64,000 nucleotides of DNA, taken from the NCBI GenBank assembly GCA_041661745.1, contig JBAZTR010000002.1:132368-196367 (forward strand), in the 5' to 3' direction. Position numbers and translations under genes: made by a program. This DNA is from Patescibacteria group bacterium (GTDB lineage: Bacteria > Patescibacteriota > Patescibacteriia > UBA9934 > GWF2-40-263). Below are positions 1,136-60,577 of the stretch, one piece after another. Every line of letters begins with the position of its first letter. Position 1 is the first letter of the stretch. Below the pieces are notes generated by a model. The model saw nothing but the letters and a program-made list of their open reading frames with translations, was not told where the DNA came from and made no database searches.

Positions 1136-1354
1136 ATGATCGAGAACATCTTAAATATCTCCCAAGCCGTATTAGCCGTAATTCTTGTTGTTTGTATTCT
1201 TCTGCAAGCCCGCGGCACTGGTTTGGGCGCAGCCTTTGGTGGCGACAGCAATGTTTATCGTACCAAACGCGGCATTGAAAAACGACTTTTCCAAGCCACT
1301 ATTGTCGTGGCAATTCTCTTCTTTGGTGTCTCTTTGGCCAACGTGGTTTTCTAA
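1136..1354 (+). CDS. secG: Preprotein translocase subunit SecG
   Basis: 72-aa, two-TM protein with the SecG-type LLQ..G.G.G..FGG motif (ILLQARGTGLGAAFGG). Confidence 0.7.
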   Translation: MIENILNISQAVLAVILVVCILLQARGTGLGAAFGGDSNVYRTKRGIEKRLFQATIVVAILFFGVSLANVVF

Positions 1355-1373
1355 AACAAGAGACAAATTTTTT

Positions 1374-3239
1374 GTGCCATTAGGCATACTCTTAAAATCC
1401 GGTTTTAAAAATCTATTCAGACGCTTAAAGGGCGCTTGGTCTGATTTACGTTCCCCAAAAAACCAAACCGGCAATTTGACCAAAAAACAAATCCTGCAAC
1501 TCTCAACCAACCATCGTTTTCCAACCTTGGCTCAATGGAAACATTTGCCTTCAGTCCTTTCTGAGACGGAAAAGAAAACCCTGCAAGTTGTTTTGGCTGT
1601 GGGAGCAGTCTCTTTCATTACCTTGGGTAGTTGGTGGTTGGTTACTCATCGGGCCGAGGTTCCGATGGTTGGTGGTTCGTATACCGAGGGTTTGGTTGGC
1701 TCCCCACAATTTATCAATCCCCTTTATTCCTCAACCAGTGATGTTGATTCTGATTTGGTCAGCTTAATCTATTCCGGACTTTTTAAATGGACTCAGGCCG
1801 ACGGCCTGCAACCCGATCTGGCCGAATCCTTTACGGTTTCCGAAGACCAGAAAACTTATACTATTAAATTGCGCGGCAACGCCGTCTGGCATAACGGCGA
1901 CCCGGTTCGTTCCAGTGACGTCTTATTCACTATTCAAAGCATTCAGGATCCGGCTTATCACAGTCCTTTGGCTATAAGTTTTCGCGGCGTAACCGTTTCA
2001 GAAGTTGATGAGTTGACTGTTCAGTTTGTTTTAAGTGAACCGTTTGCCCCGTTTCTTTCTTCCTTAATTGTCGGTATTTTACCATCGGCTATTTGGGCGG
2101 AATTGCCAGCCAAAAATGTTCCTTTAACCTCATTCAATCTTTCCCCTATTGGTAGCGGCCCGTACAAATTCGAAAAATATGCCGTGGAAAAAAGTGGTGA
2201 AATAAAATCATATTCACTAGTTCGTAACCCGGCCTACTACGGTGAGCCAGCTAAAATCGAACATTTAATTTTTAAATTTTATAACGATGCCACCAGCGCG
2301 GTGGCCGCTTTGCAAAACCAAAATGTCGAAGGGGTCGGTTTTGTGCCTAGTTACTTAGTTGAGGAAATAGCTGAAGACAAATCAGTTAATCTGTTTTACC
2401 CCAGCATGCCACAGGCCGTAACCCTCTTCTTTAATTCCGACACACAACCGCTTCTTGACGACGAAGACATTAGGCAAGCTTTGTCTTTAATTATCGACAA
2501 AGATCAAATCATTAACGAGGCCCTGGGCGGCAAAGGAACAAAGATCAATTCACCAATCCTGCCCGGCACCCTCGGTTACGACGAAACAATTGGCCAAACG
2601 GCCATTGATTCGGCCCAGGCCCTTGCTTTATTGGATAAGACCGATTATACTCAAACCTCTTCGGAAGGCTATCGAGCCAAAACCGTCAAAAAAACCGAAA
2701 ACGGAACAACTGTCGAAGCCCTCGAAGAGTTGACTTTAACTTTAACCGTTATTAATCAACCGACCTTTATTAAGGTGGCCGATCTGATTACGGCTCAGGC
2801 TAAAAGTGTTGGTATTAAAATCCAAACCGAAACCGTTGAACCAACCTCGCTTTATAATGAAGTTATCAAACCGCGAGCTTATCAAATTCTTTTAACAGCC
2901 ACACAATACGGTTTGGATTCTGATCCATATCCGTTCTGGCATAGTTCGCAAATTAAAGATCCCGGTCTAAACCTTTCACTTTACAGCAACCGAACGGTTG
3001 ATGAATTGTTAGAAAAAGCTCGGGCTACCAATAATTCTGAAGAACGGGCCACAGCTTATAAAGATTTTCAAACACAAATCGTTAAAGATTTACCAGCTAT
3101 TTTCTTGTATCAACCAGCCTACACCTACGCCGTCGGTTCGAAAATAAAAAATGTTTCTCTTCAAAAAATTCAGTCACCGGCCGATCGTTTCCAAGACATT
3201 ACCGGTTGGTATATCAAAACAAAAAATGTCATCAAATAA
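1374..3239 (+). CDS. ABC transporter substrate-binding protein, family 5 (oligopeptide/nickel type), membrane anchored
   Basis: Long ORF 1185..3239. Its 5' part overlaps secG, so the start is placed at GTG 1374 just after the secG stop. There is an N-terminal TM segment and then an SBP_bac_5-like length and composition. Confidence 0.6.
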   Translation: MPLGILLKSGFKNLFRRLKGAWSDLRSPKNQTGNLTKKQILQLSTNHRFPTLAQWKHLPSVLSETEKKTLQVVLAVGAVSFITLGSWWLVTHRAEVPMVGGSYTEGLVGSPQFINPLYSSTSDVDSDLVSLIYSGLFKWTQADGLQPDLAESFTVSEDQKTYTIKLRGNAVWHNGDPVRSSDVLFTIQSIQDPAYHSPLAISFRGVTVSEVDELTVQFVLSEPFAPFLSSLIVGILPSAIWAELPAKNVPLTSFNLSPIGSGPYKFEKYAVEKSGEIKSYSLVRNPAYYGEPAKIEHLIFKFYNDATSAVAALQNQNVEGVGFVPSYLVEEIAEDKSVNLFYPSMPQAVTLFFNSDTQPLLDDEDIRQALSLIIDKDQIINEALGGKGTKINSPILPGTLGYDETIGQTAIDSAQALALLDKTDYTQTSSEGYRAKTVKKTENGTTVEALEELTLTLTVINQPTFIKVADLITAQAKSVGIKIQTETVEPTSLYNEVIKPRAYQILLTATQYGLDSDPYPFWHSSQIKDPGLNLSLYSNRTVDELLEKARATNNSEERATAYKDFQTQIVKDLPAIFLYQPAYTYAVGSKIKNVSLQKIQSPADRFQDITGWYIKTKNVIK

Positions 3240-3240
3240 T

Positions 3241-3327
3241 GGGCGAGTGGCGGAATTGGTATACGCGTAGGTCTCAGAAGCCTATGTCTGCAAAGACTTG
3301 AGAGTTCGAGTCTCTCCTCGCCCACCA
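3241..3327 (+). tRNA. tRNA-Leu (anticodon CAG), long variable arm, encoded CCA
   Basis: Cloverleaf GGGCGAG..CTCGCCCACCA. Anticodon loop CTCAGAA. Long extra arm TGTCTGCAAAGACTTGA. Confidence 0.8.
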
Positions 3328-3419
3328 AGCTTAGCTTGGCCCACCATTGAGAGTTTCCCGCCTTTGGCGGGACCCCGCCGAGGCCACCGAAGGCGGGGCG
3401 AGTCTCTCCTCGCCCACCA
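3328..3419 (+). repeat. tRNA-associated GC-rich double-hairpin element followed by a 20-nt duplicate of the tRNA-Leu 3' end
   Basis: TCCCGCCTTTGGCGGGACCCCGCC..GGCGGGGC at 3356-3398. Exact copy of GAGTCTCTCCTCGCCCACCA (tRNA 3308-3327) at 3400-3419. Confidence 0.75.
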
Positions 3420-3550
3420 AGTAGTTTTCCTTCTTATTTGTCTTCCCCTAAAAGCTTTGGGAGAAAACAAATAACGAGGAGAAATCCCCGTCTCTTCCCT
3501 TAATTAAATAATCGTTTTGCTGTTTTTACGTATTAAAAACAAAAATATTT

Positions 3551-5419
3551 ATGGTAGAAAAAATTCAACCTAAACAAGCCCATCGTGGCGGCCAACGTCG
3601 CCATCACCGGGCCGGTTTTCAAAAAACCAAACCGCTCGCCGTTAAAACACCAGAGGTCCCAAAGCCATTGGATAGTTTTAATCGCTTTCGCGGAAAAATT
3701 TTCCGTCGTCAAGACGCCAAACCGCTTCCTTCTAATCAACCGTCGTCACCCGGTGACACCCTGCGGGTGGTTATTATCGGCGGCTGCGAAGAAGTTGGCC
3801 GCAACATGACTGTATTCGAATACGGTAACGATATTGTCATCCTCGACATGGGTATTCAATTCCCCGAGGAGGACATGCCCGGCATTGATTACATTATTCC
3901 GAATATTAGTTACCTGCGCGGCAAAGAAAAAAATATTCGCGCCGTAATTTTTAGCCACGGCCACTTGGACCACATTGGCGCGGCCCCAATTCTTTTAGAA
4001 AAATTGGGTTATCCGCCAATTGTTGGTCGCAGCCTGACCTTGGCCATGATCAAAAAACGCTTGGAAGACCACGAACCAGGCTCAGCCAAAAAATTAAAAA
4101 CCATTCTAATTAAAAATATTAGCGATCGTTTTACTTTTGGTAAATTCAAAGTTGGTTTCTTTGATATCGAGCATTCCATTATGGACGCCGTTGGCGTTAT
4201 TTTGGGCACCCCGGCCGGCAACGTTCTTCACCCCGGTGACTGGACCATGGGTAAGGATGTGGAAAAGAATCAAGTTATTTCTTATCGTCACTTAACCAAA
4301 ATCCCCAGCCCGCGCATTTTAATGCTCGAAAGTTTGGGAGCCATTGATTTTCGAACCGAAACCGTCTCTGACAAAGAAATGTACGAAAATCTACAACTGT
4401 TAATTGATAAGGCCCCGGGCCGAGTGATTATCGGAACTTTCTCTTCGCAGATTAAACGCATTGGTAAACTAATCGAGTACGCCGAAAAAATCGGCAAAAA
4501 AGTTGCTCTCGATGGTTTTAGTATGAAGATGAACGTGGAAATCGCTCAGTCACTTGGTTACATTAAAGTTGCCCGAAACACCCTTATTCCCATCAATGAG
4601 GTTAATAGCCACCCTGATGAAAAAATCGTGATTATTTGTACCGGCGCCCAAGGCGAAGGCAACGCCGTGTTGTCGCGCATCATCAGTGATAACCATCGCT
4701 TCGTTAAAATTAAAAAGAAGGACACTGTCATCTTCTCTTCCTCGGTTATTCCTGGTAACGAACGCACTGTGCAGCGTCTAAAAGACAATCTGTATCGCAA
4801 ATGTGACAACGTTATTCACACCAGTATCATGGATGTGCACGTCAGCGGTCACTCCAACGCCGAAAACATCAAAGAAATGATTCGCCAAACTAAACCCGAC
4901 TTCTTTATTCCGGTTTATGGCAACCACTTCTTCTTAAAGGAGGCCGCCAAACGGGCCGTGGAAATCGGTTTCCCCAAAGAACGAATTATTGTGCCGGACA
5001 ACGGCTCGGTTATTGAATTCAAAAACCGCCAAGCCAAAATATCCGACCAAAAAGTTGATACCAGTTATATCTTTGTCGACGGTTTGGGCATCGGCGATGT
5101 CTCGCAAATCGTTTTGCGTGACCGCCAGGTTTTGTCCGAAGACGGTATGATTGTCGTCATCGTCCAAATCGATCGCAAAACCGGTAAACTGGTCGGCTCG
5201 CCCGACATTATCAGTCGCGGCTTTATCTTCATGAAAGAACATAAAGATTTAATCGAAGCGACTCGTCAAAAAGTCCGCGACATTGCCGCTGATAAGGATC
5301 CAAAAACCGAAGCCGACTCGGATGACATCAAAAACAACATCCGAAACGGCTTAGGCCAGTTCTTGTTCCAAAAAACCGAACGCCGGCCAATGATTCTGCC
5401 GGTTGTAATCGAAGTTTAA
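3551..5419 (+). CDS. rnj: Ribonuclease J (metallo-beta-lactamase / beta-CASP RNase) with basic N-terminal extension
   Basis: HGHLDHIG zinc motif, beta-CASP layout, 622 aa. Confidence 0.85.
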   Translation: MVEKIQPKQAHRGGQRRHHRAGFQKTKPLAVKTPEVPKPLDSFNRFRGKIFRRQDAKPLPSNQPSSPGDTLRVVIIGGCEEVGRNMTVFEYGNDIVILDMGIQFPEEDMPGIDYIIPNISYLRGKEKNIRAVIFSHGHLDHIGAAPILLEKLGYPPIVGRSLTLAMIKKRLEDHEPGSAKKLKTILIKNISDRFTFGKFKVGFFDIEHSIMDAVGVILGTPAGNVLHPGDWTMGKDVEKNQVISYRHLTKIPSPRILMLESLGAIDFRTETVSDKEMYENLQLLIDKAPGRVIIGTFSSQIKRIGKLIEYAEKIGKKVALDGFSMKMNVEIAQSLGYIKVARNTLIPINEVNSHPDEKIVIICTGAQGEGNAVLSRIISDNHRFVKIKKKDTVIFSSSVIPGNERTVQRLKDNLYRKCDNVIHTSIMDVHVSGHSNAENIKEMIRQTKPDFFIPVYGNHFFLKEAAKRAVEIGFPKERIIVPDNGSVIEFKNRQAKISDQKVDTSYIFVDGLGIGDVSQIVLRDRQVLSEDGMIVVIVQIDRKTGKLVGSPDIISRGFIFMKEHKDLIEATRQKVRDIAADKDPKTEADSDDIKNNIRNGLGQFLFQKTERRPMILPVVIEV

Positions 5420-5423
5420 TAGA

Positions 5424-5452
5424 AACCCCTGGGGTAAACCCGGGGGTTTTGA
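5424..5452 (+). terminator. Rho-independent terminator after rnj
   Basis: AAACCCCTGGGGTAAACCCGGGGGTTTT: GC hairpin followed by a T-run. Confidence 0.55.
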
Positions 5453-5469
5453 TTTTTCCCCAACGGCCC

Positions 5470-5498
5470 TTGACAACAAAATGGCTATATACTACTAT
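5470..5498 (+). promoter_or_regulatory. sigma70-like promoter (TTGACA, 17-nt spacer, TACTAT)
   Basis: TTGACA at 5470-5475, 17-nt spacer, TACTAT at 5493-5498, about 15 nt before the ATG at 5513. Confidence 0.5.
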
Positions 5499-5512
5499 AC
5501 TAGTATAACAAT

Positions 5513-5794
5513 ATGGAAAAAAAATCTGCTTGGCGTCGGGAATTAGAAAAGACTCTAAGTCTGGCGGCCCGCGACCCAAAAACTCTCAACCTTTTCTTAG
5601 ACGATTTACTCTCCCCCGAGGAATTACTGGCCTTGCCAGTGCGTTGGCAAGTTATCAAACGTCTCAATCAAGGCCTGCCTCAACACCAAATCGCCAAAAA
5701 ACTGGGAATTGGCGTAGCCACCGTAACGCGCGGGGCTAAAATGTTAAAAAATCAACAGGGTGGTTTTCGAAAAATTCTCAATACCCTCAAATAA
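5513..5794 (+). CDS. TrpR-like YerC/YecD family DNA-binding protein
   Basis: 93 aa. LSPEELLALPVRWQVIKRL..IAKKLGIGVATVTRGA matches the Trp-repressor-like HTH family. Confidence 0.6.
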   Translation: MEKKSAWRRELEKTLSLAARDPKTLNLFLDDLLSPEELLALPVRWQVIKRLNQGLPQHQIAKKLGIGVATVTRGAKMLKNQQGGFRKILNTLK

Positions 5795-5996
5795 TTTATT
5801 ATGTCGTTTCGCATAAAAGACAACCTAATTTGGTGGCGAACTTGTCAAAGGTAAGGCAAGATTCGTTTTGATTTTTCGAATATTTAACGAAACATCCCGG
5901 ATCTGGCCGGGATGTTTTTTTATTCGAAAGGGGTCAACGAATTGTTCGTTTGTCCTGACGGACAAAAAACCGTCACTTCACCTCAAGAGGTCTGTC

Positions 5997-6620
5997 ATGC
6001 TCGCGACTCCCTTCGCTCCTTCTGCCGTTTCTGCCAACGGATTCAAAATCGTTGTCAGAATCCCCGACCCGGAACAGGCAACCTTGGCCGCTTCGGAAGG
6101 CTTCGGCAAACCAATCGACCCGGCTCTAGAAAAAGACGTGACCGAACATCTGGCCGCCTGCCATTTCGGTCTGTCTTTCTTTAGCTCCGAGGACGAATTC
6201 GCCGGCTTTGCTCTCTACCGAAGACTCGGCAATATTCTCTGCGGTGGTGGCATGGTTCTGCGAACAGCTTTCCAAGCTCATGGGCTTGGACAAATTGCCA
6301 TCCAAACCGCGCGGGTCGTAAGCCAAACCGAATACCTGGCCTTCCGAACTCAATCGTTGCGTATGTGGACGGCTGGGAAAAAGGCTGTCTCGATCTGGCG
6401 ACCAAATCCCTCAGGCACGGACGATCCGGCGTTGGCTGAAGCAATCGAAAGAGCGGCGATCTTTCTTAAGGTCAATCAGACCGTGACCTCAGGATTCTAC
6501 GGCGGCCCGCTTTACGGGAAAAAGCCGCTCTACACCAAAGACGCGGCGCGTCAGGCCTGGTGGGACTCCATTTGCTCTTTCGAACGTGGCGACGCTATTC
6601 TTTGCGTCGGACGCTTTTAA
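5997..6620 (+). CDS. GNAT-family N-acetyltransferase (GC-rich gene)
   Basis: ORF 5868..6620 with probable start at the MLATPFAP Met. Acetyl-CoA motif-A-like VLRTAFQAHGLGQIA. Local GC is clearly higher than the flanks. Confidence 0.4.
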   Translation: MLATPFAPSAVSANGFKIVVRIPDPEQATLAASEGFGKPIDPALEKDVTEHLAACHFGLSFFSSEDEFAGFALYRRLGNILCGGGMVLRTAFQAHGLGQIAIQTARVVSQTEYLAFRTQSLRMWTAGKKAVSIWRPNPSGTDDPALAEAIERAAIFLKVNQTVTSGFYGGPLYGKKPLYTKDAARQAWWDSICSFERGDAILCVGRF

Positions 6621-8463: not shown

Positions 8464-8872
8464 CACAGAACCATCTGTAAGCCGAATTTTGTCTGCCCGA
8501 TCTTACGACCGAGGAGGCAATCATTTATCTAGATTAGACATTGCTGCCTAATTCATCAGCGAGCTACCAGTAAAACTTGCTCTTGTACCAGAAGGGGTTT
8601 TCCACGCGTCCATGTTGCCATGGAGCGAAAGGCGTTCGACGCCTTACTTTTCACCTTTCATCCCGCCAGAGGCGGGACTAGTATTGTCTCTGTGGCACTA
8701 ATCCCTAAGCTTTTGAACTTGAACAACAGAGATCTCTCAAGGTCGTCCAGATTCATTATGCTTGGTCGCCGTTAGCGACTTTCCTTTTCATCAGCCGTTG
8801 CCGACTGAAGGGTATTCGGACTTTCCTCAACTCACCTTTCGGCAAATCGCGATTGCCCGATGGTCTGTGCCC
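8464..8872 (-). ncRNA. rnpB: RNase P RNA (bacterial type) candidate
   Basis: About 410-nt ORF-free gap. The minus strand has GAGGAAAGTCCGAAT (P4 5' strand) near the 5' end and ACAGATGGTTCTGTG / CGGCTTA near the 3' end. The P1 strands pair (GCACAGACCATC with GATGGTTCTGTG). There is a GGTGAAAAGTAAGGCG-like element. Confidence 0.55.
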
Positions 8873-19732: not shown

Positions 19733-19965
19733 TTACCTTCCTCCTGTGACGATTATCGAATCGTTACTTTGGTCGAGCACAATATCATAATAAAACTTAA
19801 AGGTCAATACTAAACCAAAAACCGCCCGGTTTAATCCGAGCGGTTTTTTATTTTTAAGATTGGTGCGTCGAGCTGTGCTCGACTCGCACCATCGAGCTTA
19901 TCTGACTTCTATGCCAGGCAAAAGCTAAGCTTTTGCCATTGTAACAGAAATCGAGCTAAGCTCGA

Positions 19966-20042
19966 TGGTGCGCCCAAGACGATTCGAACGTCTGACTTCT
20001 TCCTTCGGAGGGAAGCGCTCTATCCAGCTGAGCTATGGGCGC
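19966..20042 (-). tRNA. tRNA-Arg (anticodon CCG), encoded CCA
   Basis: Reverse complement reads GCGCCCATAGCTCAGCTGGATAGAGCGCTTCCCTCCGAAGGAAG..TTCGAATCGTCTTGGGCGCACCA. Anticodon loop CTCCGAA. Confidence 0.8.
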
Positions 20043-20264
20043 ATATTATTTTGTTGCGCCTAGCGAAGCTGGCAATTTTTCCAGCTGCCCCGCCGACGGT
20101 GGCCTTTGGCGGGGTCCCGCCAAAACGAAGTGACGGCGGGAAGCTATGGGCGCATATTATTTTGTTGCGCCTAGCGAAGCTGGCAATTTTTCCAGCTGCC
20201 CCGCCGGCGGTGGCCTTTGGCGGGGTCCCGCCAAAACGAAGTGACGGCGGGAAGCTATGGGCGC
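20043..20264 (-). repeat. Two tandem 111-bp units, each made of a tRNA-associated GC-hairpin element plus a 12-nt copy of the tRNA-Arg 5' end
   Basis: AGCTATGGGCGC (reverse complement of the tRNA 5' end GCGCCCATAGCT) recurs at 20031, 20142 and 20253. The units differ by a single A/G. Confidence 0.85.
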
Positions 20265-26439: not shown

Positions 26440-26694
26440 ACTGCCGTTCGCTACAATTCAATTTTTCAAGAAAAAAGGCTCATTCATCCAGTCTTTGGAG
26501 AATGGGTTTTAAAACTCCAGCGAACAACGATCATTCACAATTGAAGACCTGCAACAAACAAGCAAAAAGAATCAATTGTCAATTATACGATTGTAACGTC
26601 TATCAATGACAAATATTTAACTCCAAACAATAACGGAGCTAGTCATTTCTCAGAGTTCCTCCGAAGCCCGTAAGGGCAAAGGGGAATTTCTTCT

Positions 26695-28187
<1,493 letters not shown>

Positions 28188-28406
28188 AAAGGAATCCGAG
28201 GCTTAGGCCTCTATCCTATTAGGTCGACCAGTTAACCGAGTTCGCTCGGCTTAACAGGCAAGGATCAGTCTCGCAAGAGAATGATTTACAGACGTTACAA
28301 TCGTATAGAAGACAATTGCTTGAAGACACCTGAAATATGGTGTTTTTTGTTTATTTTTCCTCTTGACCTTATTGGGTTAATTTTCTATAATATCACTCGT
28401 CAATAC

Positions 28407-28488
28407 GGGCGTGTAGCTTCCCCCTTCGCCTTCGGGCTTCGGAGGACAGGCAGCTGGTCCAGCTTCGCTACACGTTCAAAAATAACCC
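28407..28488 (+). repeat. 12-nt duplicate of the tRNA-Ile 5' end (GGGCGTGTAGCT) followed by a 70-nt tRNA-associated element (TCCCCCTTCGCC..CAGCTGGTCCAGCTTCGCTAC..)
   Basis: Exact repeat of tRNA nucleotides 1-12 lies immediately upstream of the element, and the element abuts the intact tRNA. Confidence 0.8.
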
Positions 28489-28565
28489 GGGCGTGTAGCT
28501 CAGCTGGTTAGAGCGCAACACTGATAATGTTGAGGTCACAGGTTCGAGTCCTGTCACGCCCACCA
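28489..28565 (+). tRNA. tRNA-Ile (anticodon GAT), encoded CCA
   Basis: GGGCGTGTAGCTCAGCTGGTTAGAGCGCAACACTGATAATGTTGAGG..CACGCCCACCA. Confidence 0.85.
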
Positions 28566-28567
28566 GA

Positions 28568-28642
28568 GCCGAGGTAGCTCAGTGGTAGAGCAGAGGACTG
28601 AAAATCCTCGTGTCGCGAGTCCGATTCTCGCCCTCGGCACCA
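28568..28642 (+). tRNA. tRNA-Phe (anticodon GAA), encoded CCA
   Basis: GCCGAGGTAGCTCAGTGGTAGAGCAGAGGACTGAAAATCCTC..CCTCGGCACCA. Sits 2 nt after tRNA-Ile. Confidence 0.8.
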
Positions 28643-28797
28643 CACCACGTCGCTGCATTTTAAATGGAGCTATGTGGTGTGTCCCTCCGAAGTCCTGCCT
28701 GTGGCGGGACGAAGGGGGACATCAAAACATCCAGACTCGTTCTGGGTTTTTTGTTTTATCCATGTTATACTCTTTCCGACAGAAATCTTATAAATAT

Positions 28798-29868: not shown

Positions 29869-29947
29869 CGGGCCGTAGCTTCCCGCCTTTGGCGGGACCC
29901 CGCCAGAGGCGGGGCAGTAGTTTTTCTTCGCTACGGCTGATAAATGT
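29869..29947 (+). repeat. 12-nt duplicate of the tRNA-Pro 5' end (CGGGCCGTAGCT) plus a 67-nt GC double-hairpin element
   Basis: TCCCGCCTTTGGCGGGACCCCGCCAGAGGCGGGGCAG..CTTCGCTACGGCTGATAAATGT directly precedes the intact tRNA. Confidence 0.85.
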
Positions 29948-31794: not shown

Positions 31795-32886
31795 ATGGCT
31801 GAAACTAATTTTCAACCAGATAAGGCTATACACCCCGGTAAAACGCTGCAAGAAACGTTGGACGTTTTAGGTATGAGCCAAATTGATTTAGCACAACGAA
31901 CCGAATTAACAACGAAAACTATTAACGAAATAATTCAGGGTAAAAATCCTATAACTTCCGAAACAGCGATGAAACTCGCCAATGTCTTCGGTATGGATCC
32001 TAATTTTTGGAGTAACTTACAAAAAAATTATGACGCCCAAATAGCAAAACTGCGAGAAGACGAACATCTGAAGGAAGAATCCGAATATTTAATAAAGTTC
32101 AAATGTTATAAGAAGTTGGAGGAACTGGGCTTTGTACCTAAAGTATCCGGAAAAAAAGAAAAAGTGAAGAATCTTTTAAACTTTTTCGGCATCAGCTCTC
32201 TCGATTTAGTATGTAATGTTCAACAAGTCGCCTTTAGGAAACACGAACAAAAAAAACTAGAAGAAGAATCTCTGGCGGCGTGGTTAAGGTGTGGGGAATT
32301 AGAAGCTTCAAAAATAGACACTGCTCCCTTTGACGAAAAAAAAATACAAAACAGTCTTCAAAAATTGAGAGGATTAACTCTGGAAAAGGCGGAAGCTTTT
32401 GAAAGCAAACTAATAAATGAATGTGCTTCCTTCGGAGTCGCTGTGGTCTTTATACCATACTTCAAAAATACCTATGTTTGTGGCGCTACACGATGGATCA
32501 ATCCTGAAAAAGCAATGATTCAGCTGAGTCTAAAAGGTGGACATAGTGACATTTTCTGGTTTACCTTTTTTCATGAATTGGGTCACTTATTAAAGCATGG
32601 GAAAAAAGGACGGTTTATTGAATTCGAAAAAAATAAAATCGCAAACATAGAGGAAGAACAGGCTAATAAATTTGCGTCTGATGTTTTGATTCCTCCCGTT
32701 GAGTACGCTCGATTCAAGGAGACACGAATATTTAATGACGACACAATTAAAAAATTTGCTCAGAAAATTAATGTCTCGGCAGGAATAATCGCCGGCCGCC
32801 TAGCACATGATTATGGATCTGGAAAAGCATATCGAAATTTTGAACATCTAAGGAGTAAAATTAAGTTCCGTGATAAATCCACATAA
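31795..32886 (+). CDS. HigA-like XRE-family HTH antitoxin fused to an ImmA/IrrE-type zinc metallopeptidase domain
   Basis: N-terminal HTH (LDVLGMSQIDLAQRTELTTKTINEIIQGKN). C-terminal HEXXH (FFHELGHLL). Starts 4 nt after higB. Confidence 0.6.
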   Translation: MAETNFQPDKAIHPGKTLQETLDVLGMSQIDLAQRTELTTKTINEIIQGKNPITSETAMKLANVFGMDPNFWSNLQKNYDAQIAKLREDEHLKEESEYLIKFKCYKKLEELGFVPKVSGKKEKVKNLLNFFGISSLDLVCNVQQVAFRKHEQKKLEEESLAAWLRCGELEASKIDTAPFDEKKIQNSLQKLRGLTLEKAEAFESKLINECASFGVAVVFIPYFKNTYVCGATRWINPEKAMIQLSLKGGHSDIFWFTFFHELGHLLKHGKKGRFIEFEKNKIANIEEEQANKFASDVLIPPVEYARFKETRIFNDDTIKKFAQKINVSAGIIAGRLAHDYGSGKAYRNFEHLRSKIKFRDKST

Positions 32887-32951
32887 AACAAAACTCTGAA
32901 GTCAGAAGTAGCAAAATTAAAACCGCCCCACCAATTGGGACGGTTTTTTGG

Positions 32952-33440
32952 TTATCGAATATTTCTACTTATTAATCCGGTTGAGGCCGTAAGGGCAATG
33001 GCCAAGGCGTCGGCGGCGTCATCTGGTTTAGGCACACACGACAGGTTAAAAAGGCGCGTGACCATTTTTTGCATGGCTTTTTTGTCGGCCGCCCCATTGC
33101 CAGTGACGGCTGATTTAACCTGGTTTGGGGTGAATTCGACTGTTGGGAGTTTACAGCGAGCCGCTGTCAGAGTCACCACTCCGCGGGCTTCAGCCACCTT
33201 CATGGCGGTTTTTTGGTTAACCGTGGTGTAAAGTTTTTCCATTGAAAGCAGATCCGGTTTATGCTCTTTCAAAAGACAAAGCAAGTCTTTTTCAAGCTGT
33301 AACAGCCGACTCCCAAATTCGTCTTTTTTGTCTGTGGTAATAACACCAAAATCAATGGCCCGAACGCGACAGCCGTCGACAACAATAATAGCAAAACCAA
33401 GACGATCAAAGCCTGGATCAATACCAATGATCTTAGACAT
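32952..33440 (-). CDS. ruvC: Holliday junction resolvase RuvC
   Basis: MSKIIGIDPGFDRLGFAII N-terminus (catalytic Asp). C-terminal DAADALAIAL. Confidence 0.85.
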   Translation of the reverse strand: MSKIIGIDPGFDRLGFAIIVVDGCRVRAIDFGVITTDKKDEFGSRLLQLEKDLLCLLKEHKPDLLSMEKLYTTVNQKTAMKVAEARGVVTLTAARCKLPTVEFTPNQVKSAVTGNGAADKKAMQKMVTRLFNLSCVPKPDDAADALAIALTASTGLISRNIR

Positions 33441-33441
33441 A

Positions 33442-34167
33442 TTAAGCTTCGTTGGTAAAAACCGCATCGACGTCGTCGTTTTCTTCCACTGTTTCAATAA
33501 ATTCTTCGATTTGTTTTTGAACGGCCGGGTCGTCAACCTTGGTTGTAGTCTTGGCTAAAAATTCTATACCCACACCGTCCGGTTTAAGTTTAAGAGCTTC
33601 GGCAGCATCAACGACTTTTTTTAAATCTTTTACATCACAAATAACTTGCAGACCTTCTCCAGAAGAAATAATATCTTCAGCCCCGGCCTCGATCATGGCC
33701 ATTTCAAAAGTTTCACGATCACCAACAGCACTCGAGTCAACAAAACTGACTACCCCCTTCTTATCAAACATCCACATGACACTGCCTTGGCCGCCAACTG
33801 AACCGCCGTTTTTGCTGACAATATTTTTAATCTCACCGACCGTACGATTACGATTATCAGTTGTACAACGAATAAGCAGGGCCACGCCGCCCGGAGCAAA
33901 GCCCTCGTAAATAACCTCGTCGATACTGGCCCCCTCCCCACCACCGGCCCCACGAGCCACGGCCCGCTCAATATTATCCTTGGGCATGTTTACAGCCTTA
34001 GCCGCATCAATAGCCATGCGCAACTTAAAATTAAAAGACGGGTCAGTTCCCCCTTCTTTGACGGAAACTGTAATATTTTTTGCCACCTTAGAAAAAGTAT
34101 TTGCCCGAATAGCATCGGCTTTACCTTTTACGTCTTGAATGTTATGAGAGTGAGAGTGTCCGGACAT
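33442..34167 (-). CDS. YebC/PmpR-family transcriptional regulator
   Basis: MSGHSHSHNIQDVKGKADA N-terminus typical of YebC. Confidence 0.85.
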   Translation of the reverse strand: MSGHSHSHNIQDVKGKADAIRANTFSKVAKNITVSVKEGGTDPSFNFKLRMAIDAAKAVNMPKDNIERAVARGAGGGEGASIDEVIYEGFAPGGVALLIRCTTDNRNRTVGEIKNIVSKNGGSVGGQGSVMWMFDKKGVVSFVDSSAVGDRETFEMAMIEAGAEDIISSGEGLQVICDVKDLKKVVDAAEALKLKPDGVGIEFLAKTTTKVDDPAVQKQIEEFIETVEENDDVDAVFTNEA

Positions 34168-52511: not shown

Positions 52512-52611
52512 TTTCGGTCGGTCAAACTCCCCGAGCCCGACATGCGACTCGGATTTTTATTTTGCGACACATTGTGATATTATCGGGGGGATAAATATGA
52601 TTAATCGGCGT

Positions 52612-52669
52612 CAGGGCGCTAAGGCGTTTAGGCCTTAGGGGCATAACCTTAAAGCCCTTTAACGCCCGG
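52612..52669. repeat. GC-rich palindromic intergenic repeat (copy R2), abutting the methyltransferase start codon
   Basis: CAGGGCGCTAAGGCGTTTAGGCCTTAGGGG..CCTTAAAGCCCTTTAACGCCCGG. Shares the 20-mer GGGCGCTAAGGCGTTTAGGC with the reverse complement of R1. Confidence 0.7.
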
Positions 52670-53995
52670 ATGCCGACCATCCAAACCAATCCCCAAAATA
52701 TGACATTTTTTGTACTCGGTTCTCACCCGGCCCTTTCGGTCGCAGAAATTGCGAACGTGCTTGGTGTGGAAATAAACCACTCACAATATTCAAAAGAAAT
52801 TTTATTGCTCGATGAAATCGGCACTTCACCCGAAGCCCTGCAAGGTCGTTTGGGTGGTACGATTAAAATCGGCGACATTGTCGGCGAAGTGAACCCCCCT
52901 TCGCCGGGCTTCGGCGGGGCAAGAAAAATTGATAAGGAAGAGGTCGCTGATCTTTTTGTTTCGCTTCTCGCCCACCCCTCACCCCTGCCCCTCTCCCTGA
53001 GGGAGAGGGGGGAGGAGGAGAGGGGTAACCGTGTTGTTTTCGGCATCAGCACCTATTCACTCGATGCCCACCGCGATCTTTCGACTGAAGTCAAACAAAT
53101 TGGCATGACCATAAAAACCAAGTTAAAAGAAGAAGGCCGAACCGCTCGTTTTGTTTCGACCAAAACTGCCGCCCTGCCAAGCGCGGCGGTGACCGGCGAA
53201 AAGCTTCTGGAAAACGGAGCTGAATTTGTAATCATTGTCTCTAAAGAAAAAATATACCTTGGTCAAACCCGCATTGTGCAGGATTTTCAAAGCTGGTCAG
53301 CCCGTGACTACGGTCGACCGCGTCGCGATGCCAAGTCCGGCATGTTGCCGCCAAAACTCGCGCGCATGATGATTAATTTGTCCGGCGCCAAAACCTCGGC
53401 TGCTTTGCTCGATCCGTTTTGTGGCTCGGGCACAGTGCTTATGGAAGCGGCGCTAATGGAATTTACCAATCTTATCGGCAGTGATATTTCCGAAAAAGCC
53501 ATTAAGGACACAACAATAAATTTAGATTGGTTAAATCAAAACGAAGAAGTTGATACTTCCGGAATTCGTCTTTTTAATAAACCAATCGAAACCCTGGCCG
53601 GAGACTTAAAAGAAAAAGTTGAGGTGATTGTCGGTGAAACCTATCTCGGTCCACCGCTCTCGGGTCGCGAAACACCGTTTCGACAAAAACAAATCATGGA
53701 CGAGCTGCTTGAACGCACCGCTTCCGGCCTGGCCGCCTTACTTCAACTTCTTAAAAAAGGTGGAACCGTGGTTTTGGCTCTCCCGGCTTTCTGTGCCCGC
53801 CATAGCCCGGCGACGGCGGGTCAGAATGGAAAAAATATTCAATATCTACCAACCAAAAAACTGGCCGAGGCCGTTGGTTTACAAATTGTTCCCTTCACCG
53901 GCGAACCAAACGAGGTTTCGCCTAATGGTGGGCTACTGTATGTTCGTGAAAATCAAAAAGTGGGAAGAGAAATTGTGAAAATGGTTCTTAAATAA
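52670..53995 (+). CDS. THUMP-type class I SAM-dependent RNA methyltransferase (RlmL/Trm11-like) with an in-frame palindromic insertion
   Basis: Motif I LLDPFCGSGTVLMEAA preceded by MLPPKLARMMINLSG. Low-complexity insert HPSPLPLSLRERGEEERGNR encoded by the palindrome at 52988-53010. Confidence 0.55.
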   Translation: MPTIQTNPQNMTFFVLGSHPALSVAEIANVLGVEINHSQYSKEILLLDEIGTSPEALQGRLGGTIKIGDIVGEVNPPSPGFGGARKIDKEEVADLFVSLLAHPSPLPLSLRERGEEERGNRVVFGISTYSLDAHRDLSTEVKQIGMTIKTKLKEEGRTARFVSTKTAALPSAAVTGEKLLENGAEFVIIVSKEKIYLGQTRIVQDFQSWSARDYGRPRRDAKSGMLPPKLARMMINLSGAKTSAALLDPFCGSGTVLMEAALMEFTNLIGSDISEKAIKDTTINLDWLNQNEEVDTSGIRLFNKPIETLAGDLKEKVEVIVGETYLGPPLSGRETPFRQKQIMDELLERTASGLAALLQLLKKGGTVVLALPAFCARHSPATAGQNGKNIQYLPTKKLAEAVGLQIVPFTGEPNEVSPNGGLLYVRENQKVGREIVKMVLK

Positions 53996-54112: not shown

Positions 54113-54180
54113 CGTGTCCGTCATAGCTCGCCTCGAGCGACGGCGGAATGCCACCTAGCCACCGCGATTCCAAAAACACT

Positions 54181-55101
54181 ATGCCAACTCAAATCGATAA
54201 ACTCTTAACTGACTTCCTTGAATATCTCGAAGTCGAACGCGGTCGCTCGGCCCGGACGATTAGAAATTACGATTTTTATTTGCGCCGGTTTATTAAATGG
54301 GCACGCCACCCTTCGCCGGCCGGCATTACCGATGATTTGATTCGCAAATTTCGCCTGTGGCTTAATCGTGCTGTGCCCGGACGACTTGATTCCACCATAA
54401 AAAAGAACACACAAAATTATCACCTTATTGCCTTGCGAGCTTTTCTTAAATACTTGGCTCGTCGCGATATAAAATCCATGTCCCCGGAAAAAATCGAGTT
54501 GGCTAAAGCCCCCTCGCGCATTGTTGCTTTTTTAGAAGCCGATGAATTGGATCGTGTTTTACAAATTCCCCTAGCCGCCGGCGAAGATTTAATCGGCTTG
54601 CGCGACAAAGCCATTTTGGAAATGCTTTTTTCGACCGGCCTACGCGTGTCCGAATTGGCTAATTTAAAAATCGATCAGGTAAATTTGAAACGCGACGAAT
54701 TCACTGTCCGCGGCAAAGGCGACAAACCGCGCGTTGTTTTTTTATCCGACTCGGCCAAAGAGTGGTTAAAAAAATATTTAAACAAACGCCACGATACTTC
54801 GCCTTACATGTTCATTTGCCACGACCGTGCCAAACGCGGCCGTGAGGATTCCGGTCCAATTACTCCGCGTTCAATCGAACGGATGGTTGAGTATTGTGCC
54901 AAAGCCGCCGGGGTCACCAAACGCATTACCCCGCACACCTTGCGCCACACTTTTGCCACTGACCTTTTAATGAACGGTGCCGATATTCGTTCAGTTCAAT
55001 CGCTCCTCGGCCACGCTTCCATCACCACCACCCAGGTGTATACTCATATTACGAATAAACAGCTAAAAGAAGTGCATAAAAAATTTCACGATAAGAAATA
55101 A
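54181..55101 (+). CDS. Tyrosine site-specific recombinase XerC/XerD
   Basis: HTLRHTFATDLLMNGADIRSVQSLLGHASITTTQVYTH catalytic box (R, H-x-x-R, Y). Confidence 0.85.
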   Translation: MPTQIDKLLTDFLEYLEVERGRSARTIRNYDFYLRRFIKWARHPSPAGITDDLIRKFRLWLNRAVPGRLDSTIKKNTQNYHLIALRAFLKYLARRDIKSMSPEKIELAKAPSRIVAFLEADELDRVLQIPLAAGEDLIGLRDKAILEMLFSTGLRVSELANLKIDQVNLKRDEFTVRGKGDKPRVVFLSDSAKEWLKKYLNKRHDTSPYMFICHDRAKRGREDSGPITPRSIERMVEYCAKAAGVTKRITPHTLRHTFATDLLMNGADIRSVQSLLGHASITTTQVYTHITNKQLKEVHKKFHDKK

Positions 55102-59215: not shown

Positions 59216-59396
59216 CTTTGAGAAAAATATGATTTACCAAATTACCTACATCGCTTCGGCGATCGGAACACTTGGGTTCATGCTCGGATTGAGCTAACCC
59301 AAAAAGCACGAGAGAAAAATCTCACGCGTGCTTCATGATTTATAACCTCACCCCACCCTCTCCTTAGTAAGGAGAGGGAGTTACAGATCACGAAGC
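59216..59396 (+). repeat. 180-bp leader repeat, copy A: mini-ORF + hairpins
   Basis: About 90% identical to 60578-60760. Contains the 22-aa ORF at 59229-59297, an imperfect hairpin AGCACGAGAG..CTCACGCGTGCT, and a perfect hairpin CCCTCTCCTTAGTAAGGAGAGGG. Confidence 0.85.
59229..59297 (+). CDS. 22-aa hydrophobic mini-ORF (MIYQITYIASAIGTLGFMLGLS), leader peptide or type-I-toxin-like
   Basis: Conserved in both copies of the leader repeat (paralog MIYYFVYVASAIGTLGVLLGLS). The differences are largely conservative hydrophobic substitutions. Confidence 0.4.
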   Translation: MIYQITYIASAIGTLGFMLGLS

Positions 59397-59466
59397 ATTC
59401 GAGGAGATCCACCTTCGCCGAGCTTCGGCGGACAAGGAGTCCACGATTGCGAATCCTGTCCATGTT

Positions 59467-59498
59467 GGACGGGTCCGGCAGGCATGCCGTCCTTTTTT
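59467..59498 (+). terminator. Intrinsic terminator / attenuator immediately upstream of the ribosome-binding site and ATG of the first GC-rich gene
   Basis: GGACGGGTCCGGCAGGCATGCCGTCC hairpin, then TTTTTT, then GGAGGAAAACATG. Confidence 0.55.
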
Positions 59499-59508
59499 GG
59501 AGGAAAAC

Positions 59509-60372: not shown

Positions 60373-60577
60373 TCACATAGGTTTCTTTCCCAATTTCTTC
60401 TCCTTAGGGCGAAAAAAGTAAATTGGCCATGTGTGCTTTCGAACTCGAGCACGCGTGGAACCGTAGAGTTCAAAAGGAAAGTCGTCTCCCTTTAAGTAGA
60501 CGGCAAAAACAATGCACTCGATTGGCGGATTCACTCCCCGCCTCTTCGACTAAACTCTTGAATTTTCTTTCGAGGGC

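Follow-up and report, generated by a model that had tools for sequence, protein, structure and literature searches.

The window (the whole stretch of 64,000 nucleotides analysed here) carries an intact tRNA-Leu gene that starts 1 nt past the stop codon of an SBP_bac_5 gene (1185-3239; Pfam assignment). The next gene encodes RNase J (3551-5419). Between the tRNA gene and the RNase J gene we found a second, partial tRNA-Leu sequence that is interrupted by a GC-rich double hairpin, here called EL. The features of the locus are these:

3241-3327, + strand: intact tRNA-Leu(CAG) gene, CCA encoded (ARAGORN; Rfam RF00005, 56.8 bits)
3282-3470, - strand: spurious ORF of 62 aa through the tRNA 3' end, EL and the fragment; no Pfam family
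3325-3339, no strand: perfect palindrome CCAAGCT-T-AGCTTGG, taking in the tRNA CCA (from the sequence)
3338-3346, + strand: GGCCCACCA, possibly an extra degenerate copy of the tRNA 3' end (tCGCCCACCA); a weak assignment, read from the sequence
3347-3355, + strand: TTGAGAGTT, upstream stretch of the dead tRNA-Leu fragment, equal to tRNA nt 58-66 (5' strand of the T stem, then T54 and T55); assigned by homology extension, with 30/30 identity after excision of EL
3356-3398, + strand: EL, between T55 and C56 of the fragment's T loop
3356-3372, + strand: EL hairpin 1, T-CCCGCC-TTT-GGCGGG-A
3373-3398, + strand: EL hairpin 2, C-CCCGCC-GAGGCCACCGAA-GGCGGG-G
3395-3419, + strand: potential acceptor minihelix GGGCGAG-TCTCTC-CTCGCCC-ACCA, formed by the last four G of EL and the fragment (RNA minimum-energy fold)
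3399-3421, + strand: 3' part of the dead fragment, CGAGTCTCTCCTCGCCCACCA plus AG, tRNA nt 67-87 and 2 nt of trailer; contains the second copy of the 20-mer described below
3425-3483, no strand: AT-rich inverted repeat lying past the fragment and before the RNase J gene; arms of 28 nt, 79% complementary

A previous inspection of the DNA (the sequence-only reading) had noted that the last 20 nt of tRNA-Leu recur exactly a short distance downstream. This duplication was confirmed: the 20-mer GAGTCTCTCCTCGCCCACCA has exactly two occurrences, at 3308-3327 and 3400-3419, against a chance expectation of 0.01. The direct repeat is 2 nt longer than noted (AG at 3328-3329 and 3420-3421), and it continues beyond the hairpin. 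TTGAGAGTT, directly 5' of the double hairpin, is identical to the 9 nt that precede the 21-mer in tRNA-Leu. Removal of the 43-nt EL joined 3347-3355 to 3399-3419 and yielded TTGAGAGTTCGAGTCTCTCCTCGCCCACCA, which matches the 3' end of tRNA-Leu at 30 of 30 positions. Because of this identity, the copy is read as a partial tRNA-Leu with a split T loop. A non-functional tRNA-Leu piece of 30 nt (T arm, 3' strand of the acceptor stem and CCA) starts 19 nt downstream of the intact gene, and the second 20-mer forms its tail. Neither ARAGORN nor Rfam detected a second tRNA in 3200-3560, the cloverleaf of the copy being incomplete, and virtual excision of EL at this copy gave no complete tRNA by ARAGORN.

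The spacer sequence AGCTTAGCTTGGCCCACC was confirmed at 3328-3345. The core of the palindrome, AGCTTAGCT, has three matches in all (0.27 expected), two of which lie downstream of tRNA-Arg. A search of 3100-3650 found no terminator-like site on the + strand, and a terminator role for the locus is unsupported. The ORF on the minus strand had been dismissed as an artefact, and rightly so: similar spurious ORFs that read through EL hairpins came out of ORF clustering as the largest 'protein family' among the related loci.

It had also been proposed that the copy forms an acceptor-stem minihelix. The minihelix is indeed present in the minimum-energy fold of the RNA, but this fold is unexceptional (z -2.15), and when the sequence is folded as single-stranded DNA, the T stem encloses both hairpins in the minimum-energy structure instead. 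The minihelix requires tRNA nt 1-8 to match the hairpin/T-loop junction over 8 nt (GGGCGAGT). This identity is perfect at the window tRNA-Leu only; it is 6/7 in locus L048 and absent in L084, and in the orthologous locus L043 the acceptor strand of the minihelix is lost.

Both orthologous SBP - tRNA-Leu - RNase J loci, with RNase J about 82% identical, proved to be arranged differently from the window. In L017 the tRNA-Leu is plain, and an EL directly precedes RNase J. In L043, EL splits a tRNA-Leu that precedes a different tRNA-Leu, which is intact, and a further EL lies close to RNase J; the window has no copy at that place. The arrangement thus turns over among relatives. The locus itself was reproduced exactly by an independent ENA assembly (L001), and a Logan contig (L002) covers it from 10 nt upstream of the hairpin onward.

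Partial duplicates of a tRNA gene lie beside the intact gene at four places in the window, namely at tRNA-Leu, -Arg, -Pro and -Ile. The last three comprise the following units:

20043-20264, - strand: two tandem 111-nt units upstream of tRNA-Arg(CCG)
28407-28488, + strand: unit upstream of tRNA-Ile, of like architecture, with a different (TTCG-rich) hairpin module instead of EL
29869-29947, + strand: unit upstream of tRNA-Pro, made up of tRNA nt 1-12 (29869-29880), EL (29881-29914), CAGT, the reverse complement of nt 4-11 (29930-29937) and an A-rich spacer

The double hairpin of tRNA-Leu had been said to recur at tRNA-Pro and tRNA-Arg, and we found the same. The 24-nt core TCCCGCCTTTGGCGGGACCCCGCC is identical at 3356-3379 and at 29881-29904, upstream of tRNA-Pro; two variant copies of EL lie upstream of tRNA-Arg on the minus strand (20088-20141 and 20199-20252). 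In each tRNA-Arg unit, tRNA nt 1-12 and nt 13-19 stand on either side of EL, followed by a loop, nt 19-1 in reverse complement and a spacer rich in A. These units adopt a four-way-junction fold (z -4.9), and the unit upstream of tRNA-Pro gave z -6.4. After the tRNA-Arg pair, a third, degenerate unit with a different hairpin extends to about 20366. An ENA contig ends within the tRNA-Arg array.

EL is a dispersed, protein-less repeat of two adjacent CCCGCC/GGCGGG hairpins with variable loops. Our pooled set held 188 copies with the exact core, four from the window and the rest from 177 public loci (66 genome stretches and 111 metagenome stretches); all come from metagenome assemblies, whose contigs break in these repeats. 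The hosts were Patescibacteria, Omnitrophota and a few other MAGs; several MAGs in the set have many copies each. Among the 188 copies, 137 sequences are distinct, and the loops measure 3-16 nt. A 14-nt core, almost invariant, is common to different phyla; the stems were set by the search pattern, so that their conservation is partly by design. EL starts with T at the hairpin foot, next to variable 5' flanks, and its ends are inverted (TCCCGCC...GGCGGGG). The two loops of a 54-nt class are inverted versions of each other, and loop modules occur in both orientations. Hairpin 2 has compensatory variants: CCCGTC/GACGGG in L040 and the extensions ATGC/GCAT, ATGCC/GGCAT and CCCGC/GCGGG in Omnitrophota. 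These covariation claims come from direct reading of the loop extensions and of L033 and L040; a fuzzy-regex search for variants was discarded, its hits being mostly mis-registered canonical copies.

We compared EL with known sequences in several ways. No match turned up among 2.9 million viral contigs. Rfam searches of the Leu and Arg regions, at gathering and permissive thresholds (up to E = 10), gave tRNAs and chance matches only, e.g., of miRNA type. All-against-all BLASTP over 1.16 Mb of flanks revealed no recurrent protein family of at least 100 aa beside EL, a cut-off that hid the ORFs of ≈ 85 aa described below. A search of the full-text literature for such bacterial elements returned mitochondrial analogues only.

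EL is strongly associated with tRNA genes: 57 of the 188 copies (30%) lie within 150 nt of an intact tRNA, a zone expected to hold about 4% of bases, while about two thirds are away from any tRNA. Among the tRNA-associated copies, 47 are on the same strand as the tRNA and 10 on the opposite strand. Insertion is precise and leaves no target duplication, with no duplicated bases in the tRNA alignments across the junction and fragments that are 97-100% identical to the adjacent tRNA. Four positions recur, in many tRNA species, in both orientations and in different phyla: after nt 12 (about 25 copies), in the D loop (7-9), at 35/36 (about 10) and in the T loop (about 10). The fragments have a strict polarity, in that upstream ones start at tRNA nt 1 (+/-1) and downstream ones end at the 3' end (+0-3). 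EL flanks also pair with each other more than shuffled pairs do (-5.4 versus -4.15 +/- 0.29 kcal/mol). Virtual excision followed by ARAGORN produced a complete tRNA for three of the 188 copies, none of them gained in the first 68 loci. In L015, a complete tRNA-Thr(CGT) emerged upon removal of two ELs, and no intact copy was present within 2.6 kb. EL thus sits in a complete tRNA-Thr(CGT) gene in L015 and, for one copy, in L046, which is compatible with removal at the RNA level. This isoacceptor is probably dispensable, given wobble decoding.

Next to the tRNA gene, 24 of the 178 loci have a small ORF of ≈ 85 aa that encodes a GIY-YIG domain; in many of these loci it separates the fragment from the tRNA. 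A home-made HMM detected 31 such ORF segments in the 24 loci, and four example ORFs matched PF01541 with E values of about 1e-15 to 1e-17. Nearly all lie 0-100 nt from the tRNA and 0-300 nt from EL; where the spacer measured 250-280 nt, it contained a GIY-YIG ORF in all eight cases checked. Fragment and ORF occur together in L013, L040, L084, L105, L144 and others. In L144, tRNA-Tyr comes first, then the GIY-YIG ORF and last a 3' fragment whose T loop holds EL, a layout that mirrors the Leu arrangement of the window. The window itself has no GIY-YIG ORF at E < 1e-3. GIY-YIG genes selected independently of EL (L068, L146 and L049) lie between tRNAs without a fragment, and therefore GIY-YIG insertion alone does not produce fragments. 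GIY-YIG clades tend toward a common tRNA neighbour, a pattern in which target specificity and conserved gene order are inseparable here. We found no literature account of COG2827-type GIY-YIG genes beside tRNAs.

The tRNA-Leu locus is no integrase attachment site, and we think it somewhat more probable than not that it is the scar of a mobile element. The explanation to which we give slightly better than even credence is that EL belongs to a family of mobile hairpins that insert in redundant tRNA copies, and that one such insertion split the dead tRNA-Leu fragment. EL would be a non-autonomous element that moves at the DNA level and inserts precisely, without target duplication, at the tips of hairpin-forming sequences, mostly at T|C; in tRNA genes its preferred sites would be after nt 12, in the D loop, at 35/36 and in the T loop. 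The copies would be confined to redundant tRNA pieces because insertion in a working tRNA gene would be lethal, so that only EL copies in redundant partial tRNAs survive. The partial copies, in turn, may arise from tRNA-targeted insertion or repair that remakes an intact gene beside a leftover piece. In several relatives a small, free-standing GIY-YIG gene splits the piece from the gene, as in homing-endonuclease cassettes, and the units of the window could be versions without the ORF. The anatomy of the locus, the repeat family, its choice of positions and its turnover among relatives are demonstrated; how insertion proceeds chemically, which enzyme acts and how GIY-YIG genes relate to the duplication are our inferences. 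Against this explanation count the lack of any GIY-YIG ORF in the window, the GIY-YIG genes that lie between tRNAs without a fragment, the many EL copies away from tRNAs and the complete tRNA-Thr(CGT) genes with EL; moreover, no enzyme for EL was identified among families of at least 100 aa in the 1.16 Mb of flanks, and no model accounts for the position of EL 8-20 nt from the truncated end of the fragment. Nor does any model explain the units with EL after nt 12, in which an inverted copy of tRNA nt 2-19 leaves two unpaired bases opposite the insertion point.

Hairpin-driven replication errors alone offer a possible, though rather doubtful, alternative. GC-rich hairpins would stall the fork, template switching or fold-back would produce the partial tRNA copies, and EL would spread by copy-choice, with no nuclease involved. 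Such a process fits the tRNA ends that occur as direct, inverted and again direct copies on either side of tRNA-Arg and 5' of tRNA-Ile and tRNA-Pro, as well as the tandem amplification of identical 111-nt units, the loop modules in both orientations and a window without a GIY-YIG ORF. Tandem duplication, however, predicts homology into the leader or trailer, whereas the observed homology goes no further than tRNA nt 1 or the 3' end; simple tandem duplication was rejected as the origin on this ground. Moreover, the second copy has no EL, and EL was therefore not co-duplicated. The use of the same four tRNA positions in different phyla also indicates site choice, not random slippage. We regard it as unlikely that the locus encodes a functional RNA, in which the trailer (the T stem with the two hairpins, or the ACCA minihelix) and the cloverleaf-like units at tRNA-Arg, -Pro and -Ile are co-transcribed with the tRNA and serve as processing signals, as protection or as decoys for tRNA-end enzymes. 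Stable folds (z -2.2, -4.9 and -6.4), a like architecture at several tRNAs in several lineages, the bias of EL toward the tRNA strand and the compensatory variants of hairpin 2 in L040 and Omnitrophota would suit such an RNA. It is harder to reconcile with an arrangement that is unconserved at the orthologous tRNA-Leu locus, with a minihelix that is perfect in the window alone, with the freedom of loop orientation and with the lack of a terminator-like site on the + strand downstream. EL also occurs in AT-rich spacers, in other repeats and on the opposite strand, and one EL-type hairpin lies inside an ORF of the window.

Still less probable is an element that acts at the RNA level, either intron-like or ligated into tRNA transcripts, with fragments that are reverse-transcribed tRNA pieces. 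Fragment boundaries that coincide with tRNA ends (nt 1 and CCA), A-rich spacers, precise insertion without target duplication and the tRNA-Thr(CGT) of L015, for which no nearby intact copy was seen, would all be expected of it. Yet 185 of the 188 copies reconstitute no tRNA, and the complete interrupted genes that we did see are of the one, probably dispensable, isoacceptor. Ten tRNA-associated copies are antisense and nevertheless occupy the same positions, one of which, 12/13, falls within a stem when the tRNA is folded. The fragment in L055 carries a genomic trailer (GCTTT), not an added CCA, and the flanking ORFs included no reverse transcriptase near EL copies. An assembly artefact, in which two strain variants with and without EL were joined in tandem, is very improbable: metagenome assemblies do break in these repeats, and L002 begins 10 nt before EL, but the same architecture was obtained in many assemblies, with different assemblers and samples, L001 matches the locus exactly, and the spacers are unlike both flanks. 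To the relic of an integrase-mobilised element, the attL/attR-like pair that the sequence-only reading had proposed for the tRNA-Leu 3' end, we assign the least credence of all. A direct repeat of the tRNA 3' end with CCA is what such a pair would leave, and a tyrosine recombinase gene lies within the window. This gene (54148-55101) is the only one of its kind in the window; it is XerC/D-like and about 50 kb away. The repeats are separated by 72 gene-less nt, beyond the hairpin the copy continues for 9 nt into the T stem, duplications of 5' ends at other tRNAs come with the same hairpin, and the relatives are arranged otherwise. A second, degraded tRNA gene had been named as the case that would speak against an att pair, and a second, degraded tRNA-Leu piece with an insert is what lies there.

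Our preferred reading, that of a mobile hairpin family, invites comparison with known systems. EL resembles the REP/REPIN sequences mobilised by RAYTs (IS200/IS605-like HUH transposases), which are short, non-coding, GC-rich palindromes present in many copies and often as doublets; both are strand-specific, hairpin-based and without target duplication. EL differs in that it has no GTAG-type 5' motif, has two abutting hairpins with T-A and C-G as their fixed closing pairs, strongly prefers defined tRNA positions and is found across phyla. No RAYT gene was found in the window or, among families of at least 100 aa, in ≈ 1.2 Mb of EL flanks. A MITE was also considered and rejected: inverted ends are present, a fixed-length target-site duplication is absent. 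Rickettsia palindromic elements (RPEs) are likewise palindromic repeats of a small genome that can sit inside genes; they measure 100-150 bp, typically lie in frame in protein genes and have no tRNA-position specificity. Archaeal tRNA introns share with EL several fixed tRNA positions, including the D arm, the anticodon loop and the T loop. In contrast, the 'exons' around EL reconstitute no tRNA in 185 of 188 cases, no bulge-helix-bulge is evident and the hosts are bacterial. We rejected EL as a tRNA intron, given a complete tRNA in 3/188 (L015 being the convincing one), none at the window copies and no Rfam structure; at 34-60 nt it is also too short for a group I core.

Homing endonucleases provide a parallel to the partial duplicates. 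Allomyces atp6 reportedly has a GIY-YIG ORF at its 3' end, the former 3' end persisting as a pseudogene; SegB, from the tRNA cluster of phage T4, is said to be another example of partial duplication by a free-standing homing endonuclease. The 24 related loci have the same components in both polarities, i.e., an intact gene, a small GIY-YIG ORF and a leftover fragment. They differ from homing cassettes in being aimed at tRNA genes, in having a nuclease of ≈ 85 aa that is no more than the catalytic domain and lacks a DNA-binding one, and in leaving fragments that almost always bear EL. Integrase att sites have in common with our locus the direct repeat of the tRNA 3' end with CCA. Unlike att sites, the locus has no island and no adjacent integrase, its repeat is part of a longer, interrupted tRNA piece, and sibling units duplicate 5' ends.

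Mitochondrial double-hairpin elements (DHEs) of Allomyces and Schizosaccharomyces, repetitive hairpin elements of sponges and GC clusters of yeast are GC-rich hairpins whose mechanism is unknown (PMC10085805; PMC2800124). By description, EL is like the DHEs: a pair of neighbouring GC-rich hairpins, some 40-60 nt long, in a genome with more AT, without an ORF, located in spacers and RNA genes at positions that vary between relatives. DHEs are organellar, have not been reported to be tRNA-position-specific and lie in variable parts of functional rRNA genes, whereas EL is bacterial and lies in dead gene fragments.

A more speculative reading, which we hold to be rather unlikely as a whole, would join EL and the domain-only GIY-YIG protein of ≈ 85 aa in a single mobile system, so far undescribed, directed at the tRNA genes of Patescibacteria, Omnitrophota and neighbouring lineages. 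Cuts by the nuclease would fall at loop positions defined by structure (12/13, D loop, 35/36 and T loop), repair would restore an intact tRNA and leave a piece beside it, and EL would fill or mask the cut site in this piece and so confer immunity to re-cutting; the ORF-less units of the window would be the decayed end state. In a bolder variant, complete tRNA genes that bear EL (e.g., that of L015) may be expressed, with the hairpins removed from the RNA.

These results remove a false lead, since the tRNA-Leu of the window has neither an integrative island nor an att site. They also bring out a family that seems undescribed, with a core shared across phyla, four tRNA coordinates, strict fragment polarity and a minimal GIY-YIG neighbour. 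If its mobility is confirmed, EL would be a bacterial counterpart of the mitochondrial DHEs, whose mechanism has been open for decades, and would offer a candidate enzyme together with natural insertions by the hundred for study. In practice, EL breaks metagenome assemblies, creates spurious ORFs and can make the tRNA counts of small-genome MAGs unreliable. A CCGCC hairpin in the RNase P RNA of the window (8663-8675) was considered as a further insertion and rejected, as it belongs to the family consensus. The EL-type hairpin in an ORF of the window lies, together with other GC-rich hairpins, within 52670-53995.

The last 20 nt of tRNA-Leu, GAGTCTCTCCTCGCCCACCA, occur exactly twice in the window, at 3308-3327 and 3400-3419 (0.01 occurrences expected), as the sequence-only reading had reported. 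An independently made ENA assembly (L001) contains the locus sequence as well, and a Logan contig (L002) contains part of it. The two copies flank a GC-rich double hairpin with CCCGCC/GGCGGG stems, here called EL, in the following arrangement.

3241-3327, + strand: tRNA-Leu(CAG)
3347-3355: TTGAGAGTT, directly 5' of the hairpin; the bases that precede CGAGTCTC... in tRNA-Leu

Excision of 3356-3398 yields TTGAGAGTTCGAGTCTCTCCTCGCCCACCA, which is identical to tRNA-Leu nt 58-87 at 30/30 positions; the match runs 2 trailer bases further. The 3' copy is a partial tRNA-Leu (T arm, acceptor 3' strand and CCA), and its T loop is split between T55 and C56 by the 43-nt EL. The repeated 20-mer is part of a dead tRNA-Leu fragment that is split by a double hairpin from a widespread family. 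As ssDNA, the lowest-energy fold of fragment and EL is a T stem bearing both EL hairpins. The lowest-energy RNA fold uses instead the acceptor-stem minihelix that had been proposed from the sequence (z -2.15). This minihelix arises because the final G residues of EL and the T-loop CGAGT happen to spell GGGCGAGT, that is, tRNA-Leu nt 1-8. At related public loci with EL in the T loop, it is imperfect (6/7 in L048) or absent (no match in L084; no acceptor strand in the orthologous L043).

That the same double hairpin occurs at tRNA-Pro and tRNA-Arg also proved accurate. The 24-nt core TCCCGCCTTTGGCGGGACCCCGCC at 3356 recurs unchanged at 29881, upstream of tRNA-Pro, and two variant copies precede tRNA-Arg on the minus strand. 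The units upstream of tRNA-Pro, tRNA-Ile and tRNA-Arg follow one common plan, listed here from part 1 to part 6.

Part 1: tRNA nt 1-12
Part 2: EL, or a TTCG-rich hairpin instead in the Ile unit and the third Arg unit
Part 3: tRNA nt 13 to ~19
Part 4: loop
Part 5: reverse complement of tRNA nt 19 to ~2, with two unpaired bases (TC) facing the insertion point
Part 6: A-rich spacer, then the intact tRNA

The Arg unit (111 nt, in tandem) folds into a four-way junction with a z of -4.9, and the Pro unit fold has a z of -6.4. ENA contigs of the same genome break within the 111-nt tandem units (~20129) and in a hairpin-rich stretch (~52606-53124). The window assembly is thus more contiguous, and repeat copy numbers there are assembly-dependent. 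The TTCG-rich hairpins form a second, TTCG/CTTCGG-rich family (e.g. TCCCCCTTCGCC...GGCTTCGGAGGA) located directly 3' of the CCA of many tRNAs (window 28643-28730; tRNA trailers in L023, L049, L068 and L146). They replace EL at 12/13 in the window Ile unit, the third Arg unit and the first L023 unit, and further copies lie at window 52895, 59409 and 61568.

The pattern TCCCGCC N3-16 GGCGGGACCCCGCC N3-16 GGCGGGG retrieved 66 stretches from 185,579 species-representative genomes, 111 metagenome-contig stretches and none from 2.9 million viral contigs. The genome hosts are labelled Patescibacteria (Uhrbacteria and Saccharibacteria among them), Omnitrophota, 'uncultured Gammaproteobacteria' (some MAGs) and Planctomycetia (a single MAG); several MAGs contribute roughly eight or more stretches each. 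Together with the window, the set holds 188 copies (137 distinct sequences, 34-60 nt) with freely variable loop lengths and stems whose invariance is partly by design, since they are fixed in the search pattern. The hairpin structure is nevertheless supported by compensatory stem variants (CCCGTC/GACGGG in L040 and L033) and by covarying extensions of the Omnitrophota hairpin 2 (ATGC-GAA-GCAT, ATGCC-GAA-GGCAT, CCCGC-GAA-GCGGG). In a 54-nt class, the hairpin 2 loop is the reverse complement of hairpin 1 modules found elsewhere (e.g. GTCGCTTCGCTTT, AAAGCGAAGCGAC). The order of the closing pairs T-A and C-G is constant; loop modules occur in either orientation. No Rfam family matches EL.

An intact tRNA lies within 150 nt of 57/188 copies (30%, versus ~4% expected from sequence space); 47 of these are on the tRNA strand and 10 on the opposite one. 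Alignment of the flanks to the neighbouring tRNA showed that insertion is precise, without duplicated bases, and falls at four hot spots.

After tRNA nt 12 (TAGCT|CAG...): ~25 cases
D loop (GGTTA|GAGC): 7-9 cases
Between anticodon positions 35 and 36: ~10 cases
T loop, 55/56 or 56/57: ~10 cases

The hot spots span many tRNA species and are used at identical positions by antisense copies. This shows that EL insertion into tRNA sequences is position-specific. Pairing between the two flanks of a given EL is stronger than between mismatched flanks, which indicates that EL tends to top a stem. Interrupted copies match the tRNA beside them at 97-100% identity, yet are incomplete. Virtual excision restores a full tRNA in 3/188 cases, convincingly only in L015, a tRNA-Thr(CGT) with two ELs. 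This isoacceptor is probably dispensable by wobble decoding. Complete tRNA-Thr(CGT) genes with one or two double hairpins, in the D loop and T loop, were seen at L015 6760-6960 (CAYZPO010000047) and L046 3620-3760; their cloverleaf is intact once the hairpins are removed, and L015 has no intact copy of this gene within 2.6 kb.

Fragment polarity is strict. Upstream of the intact gene, fragments begin with tRNA nt 1 (+/-1) and break off 8-20 nt past EL; downstream (window tRNA-Leu, L048, L084, L055, L087 and L105), they run to the tRNA 3' end (+0 to 3) and are truncated on the 5' side. Simple tandem duplication was considered as their origin and rejected: it would bring leader or trailer sequence, whereas the fragments stop at the tRNA ends.

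In L084, a small ORF separates the tRNA from its EL-bearing fragment. Eight spacer ORFs of this kind were combined into a profile, which found 31 ORF segments in 24/178 loci, and four examples match Pfam GIY-YIG (PF01541; E ~1e-15 to 1e-17). These four are proteins of ~80-85 aa that consist of the catalytic domain alone; the 100-aa cut-off used in clustering ORFs near EL had hidden such genes. Nearly all of the segments are encoded on the same strand, at 0-100 nt from the nearest tRNA and 0-300 nt from EL, and all eight fragment-tRNA spacers of 250-280 nt that were checked hold one. L144 (tRNA-Tyr, GIY-YIG ORF, tRNA-Tyr 3' fragment whose T loop contains EL) is the window Leu layout plus an ORF in the spacer. 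L105 has two distinct GIY-YIG genes, each directly adjoining the 5' end of a tRNA-Tyr, a pattern that would be the expected remnant of successive homing-cassette invasions. The profile found no GIY-YIG ORF in the window, and in L068, L146 and L049 such genes, not selected through EL, lie between tRNAs without a fragment. Both observations argue against a simple causal link between GIY-YIG genes and fragments.

Two MAGs (L017 and L043) share the gene order SBP_bac_5 gene, tRNA-Leu, RNase J (~82% identity in RNase J). L017 has a plain tRNA-Leu without a fragment, and an EL in AT-rich DNA directly upstream of RNase J. An RNase J-proximal EL is also present in L043 and absent from the window. In L043, another EL occupies the same T-loop site within an upstream tRNA-Leu copy that lacks the acceptor 3' strand; the intact tRNA-Leu that follows differs in sequence type (90% identity, compensatory differences). 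EL content and fragment layout thus turn over among close relatives, as expected of mobile or unstable DNA and not of a conserved functional RNA, and the tRNA-Leu arrangement is lineage-specific. Relative to L017, L043 also has 1.2 kb inserted between tRNA-Leu and RNase J (5150-6355), with hairpin repeats and a ~285-aa ORF; it is flanked by directly repeated copies of the tRNA trailer (5401-5447 and 6366-6412).

The sequence-only reading had taken the repeated 3' end for an integrase attL/attR-like pair. This is contradicted both by the copy itself, a degraded tRNA-Leu piece and so the case which that reading had named as refuting it, and by the orthologs, one without a fragment and one arranged differently. 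A functional trailer or leader RNA fits poorly with the ortholog turnover and with the presence of EL in unrelated contexts. The antisense copies contradict an origin of EL at the RNA level, for instance as an intron; so do the 'exons', which are incomplete in 185/188 cases, and the L055 fragment, which bears the genomic trailer instead of an added CCA. The arrangement is unlikely to be an assembly artefact, as many independent assemblies show it.

We infer instead that EL is probably a non-autonomous DNA element inserting at hairpin tips, plausibly in single-stranded DNA. This would fit the preference for one strand at tRNA genes, which are highly transcribed, and the fact that copies in either orientation use the same sites. 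EL would survive only within redundant tRNA pieces, themselves the putative product of DNA breakage and repair directed at tRNA genes; the best candidates behind such events are the GIY-YIG genes. In concept, EL is closest to bacterial REP/REPIN elements, to the double-hairpin elements of mitochondria (PMC10085805, PMC2800124) and to partial gene duplications associated with homing endonucleases. Unlike typical REP/REPINs, EL lacks a GTAG motif, and no RAYT was found in the ~1.2 Mb of EL flanks covered; unlike MITEs, it inserts without target duplication.

Other features of the window were noted. Downstream of tRNA-Arg (19860-19972, minus strand) lies an inverted copy of its 3' end and trailer (19885-19903 versus 19954-19972, 95% complementary), then another CGCACCA, and also a tRNA-Arg body copy, GAAGTCAGA: a direct-inverted-direct pattern without EL. 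The motif AGCTTAGCT centres three perfect palindromes, all in tRNA trailers (3328-3336, 19923-19931 and 19954-19962; 3 matches versus 0.27 expected). An ORF for a UPF0020-type methyltransferase (52670-53995) contains GC-rich hairpins at 52895-52925, 52965-53035 and 53797-53821, including a single EL-type hairpin, CCCGCCATAGCCCGGCGACGGCGGG. They may be in-frame palindromic insertions, such as the Rickettsia palindromic elements make in genes, or mark a mis-joined ORF; the ENA gene caller divides the region differently, with a DUF559 ORF on the minus strand. The 16S rRNA gene is followed by tRNA-Ile and tRNA-Phe (26689-28642) and by no 23S rRNA in the next 35 kb, which means that the rRNA genes are unlinked. 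Within 59223-64000, GC content climbs from ~45% to 60-63%, several long ORFs overlap on both strands, and a 179-nt repeat occurs at 59223-59401 and 60588-60766 (88% identity). At 31795-33536, a HigB-like toxin adjoins an HTH and peptidase M78 protein, likely a toxin-antitoxin or ImmA/IrrE-type pair.
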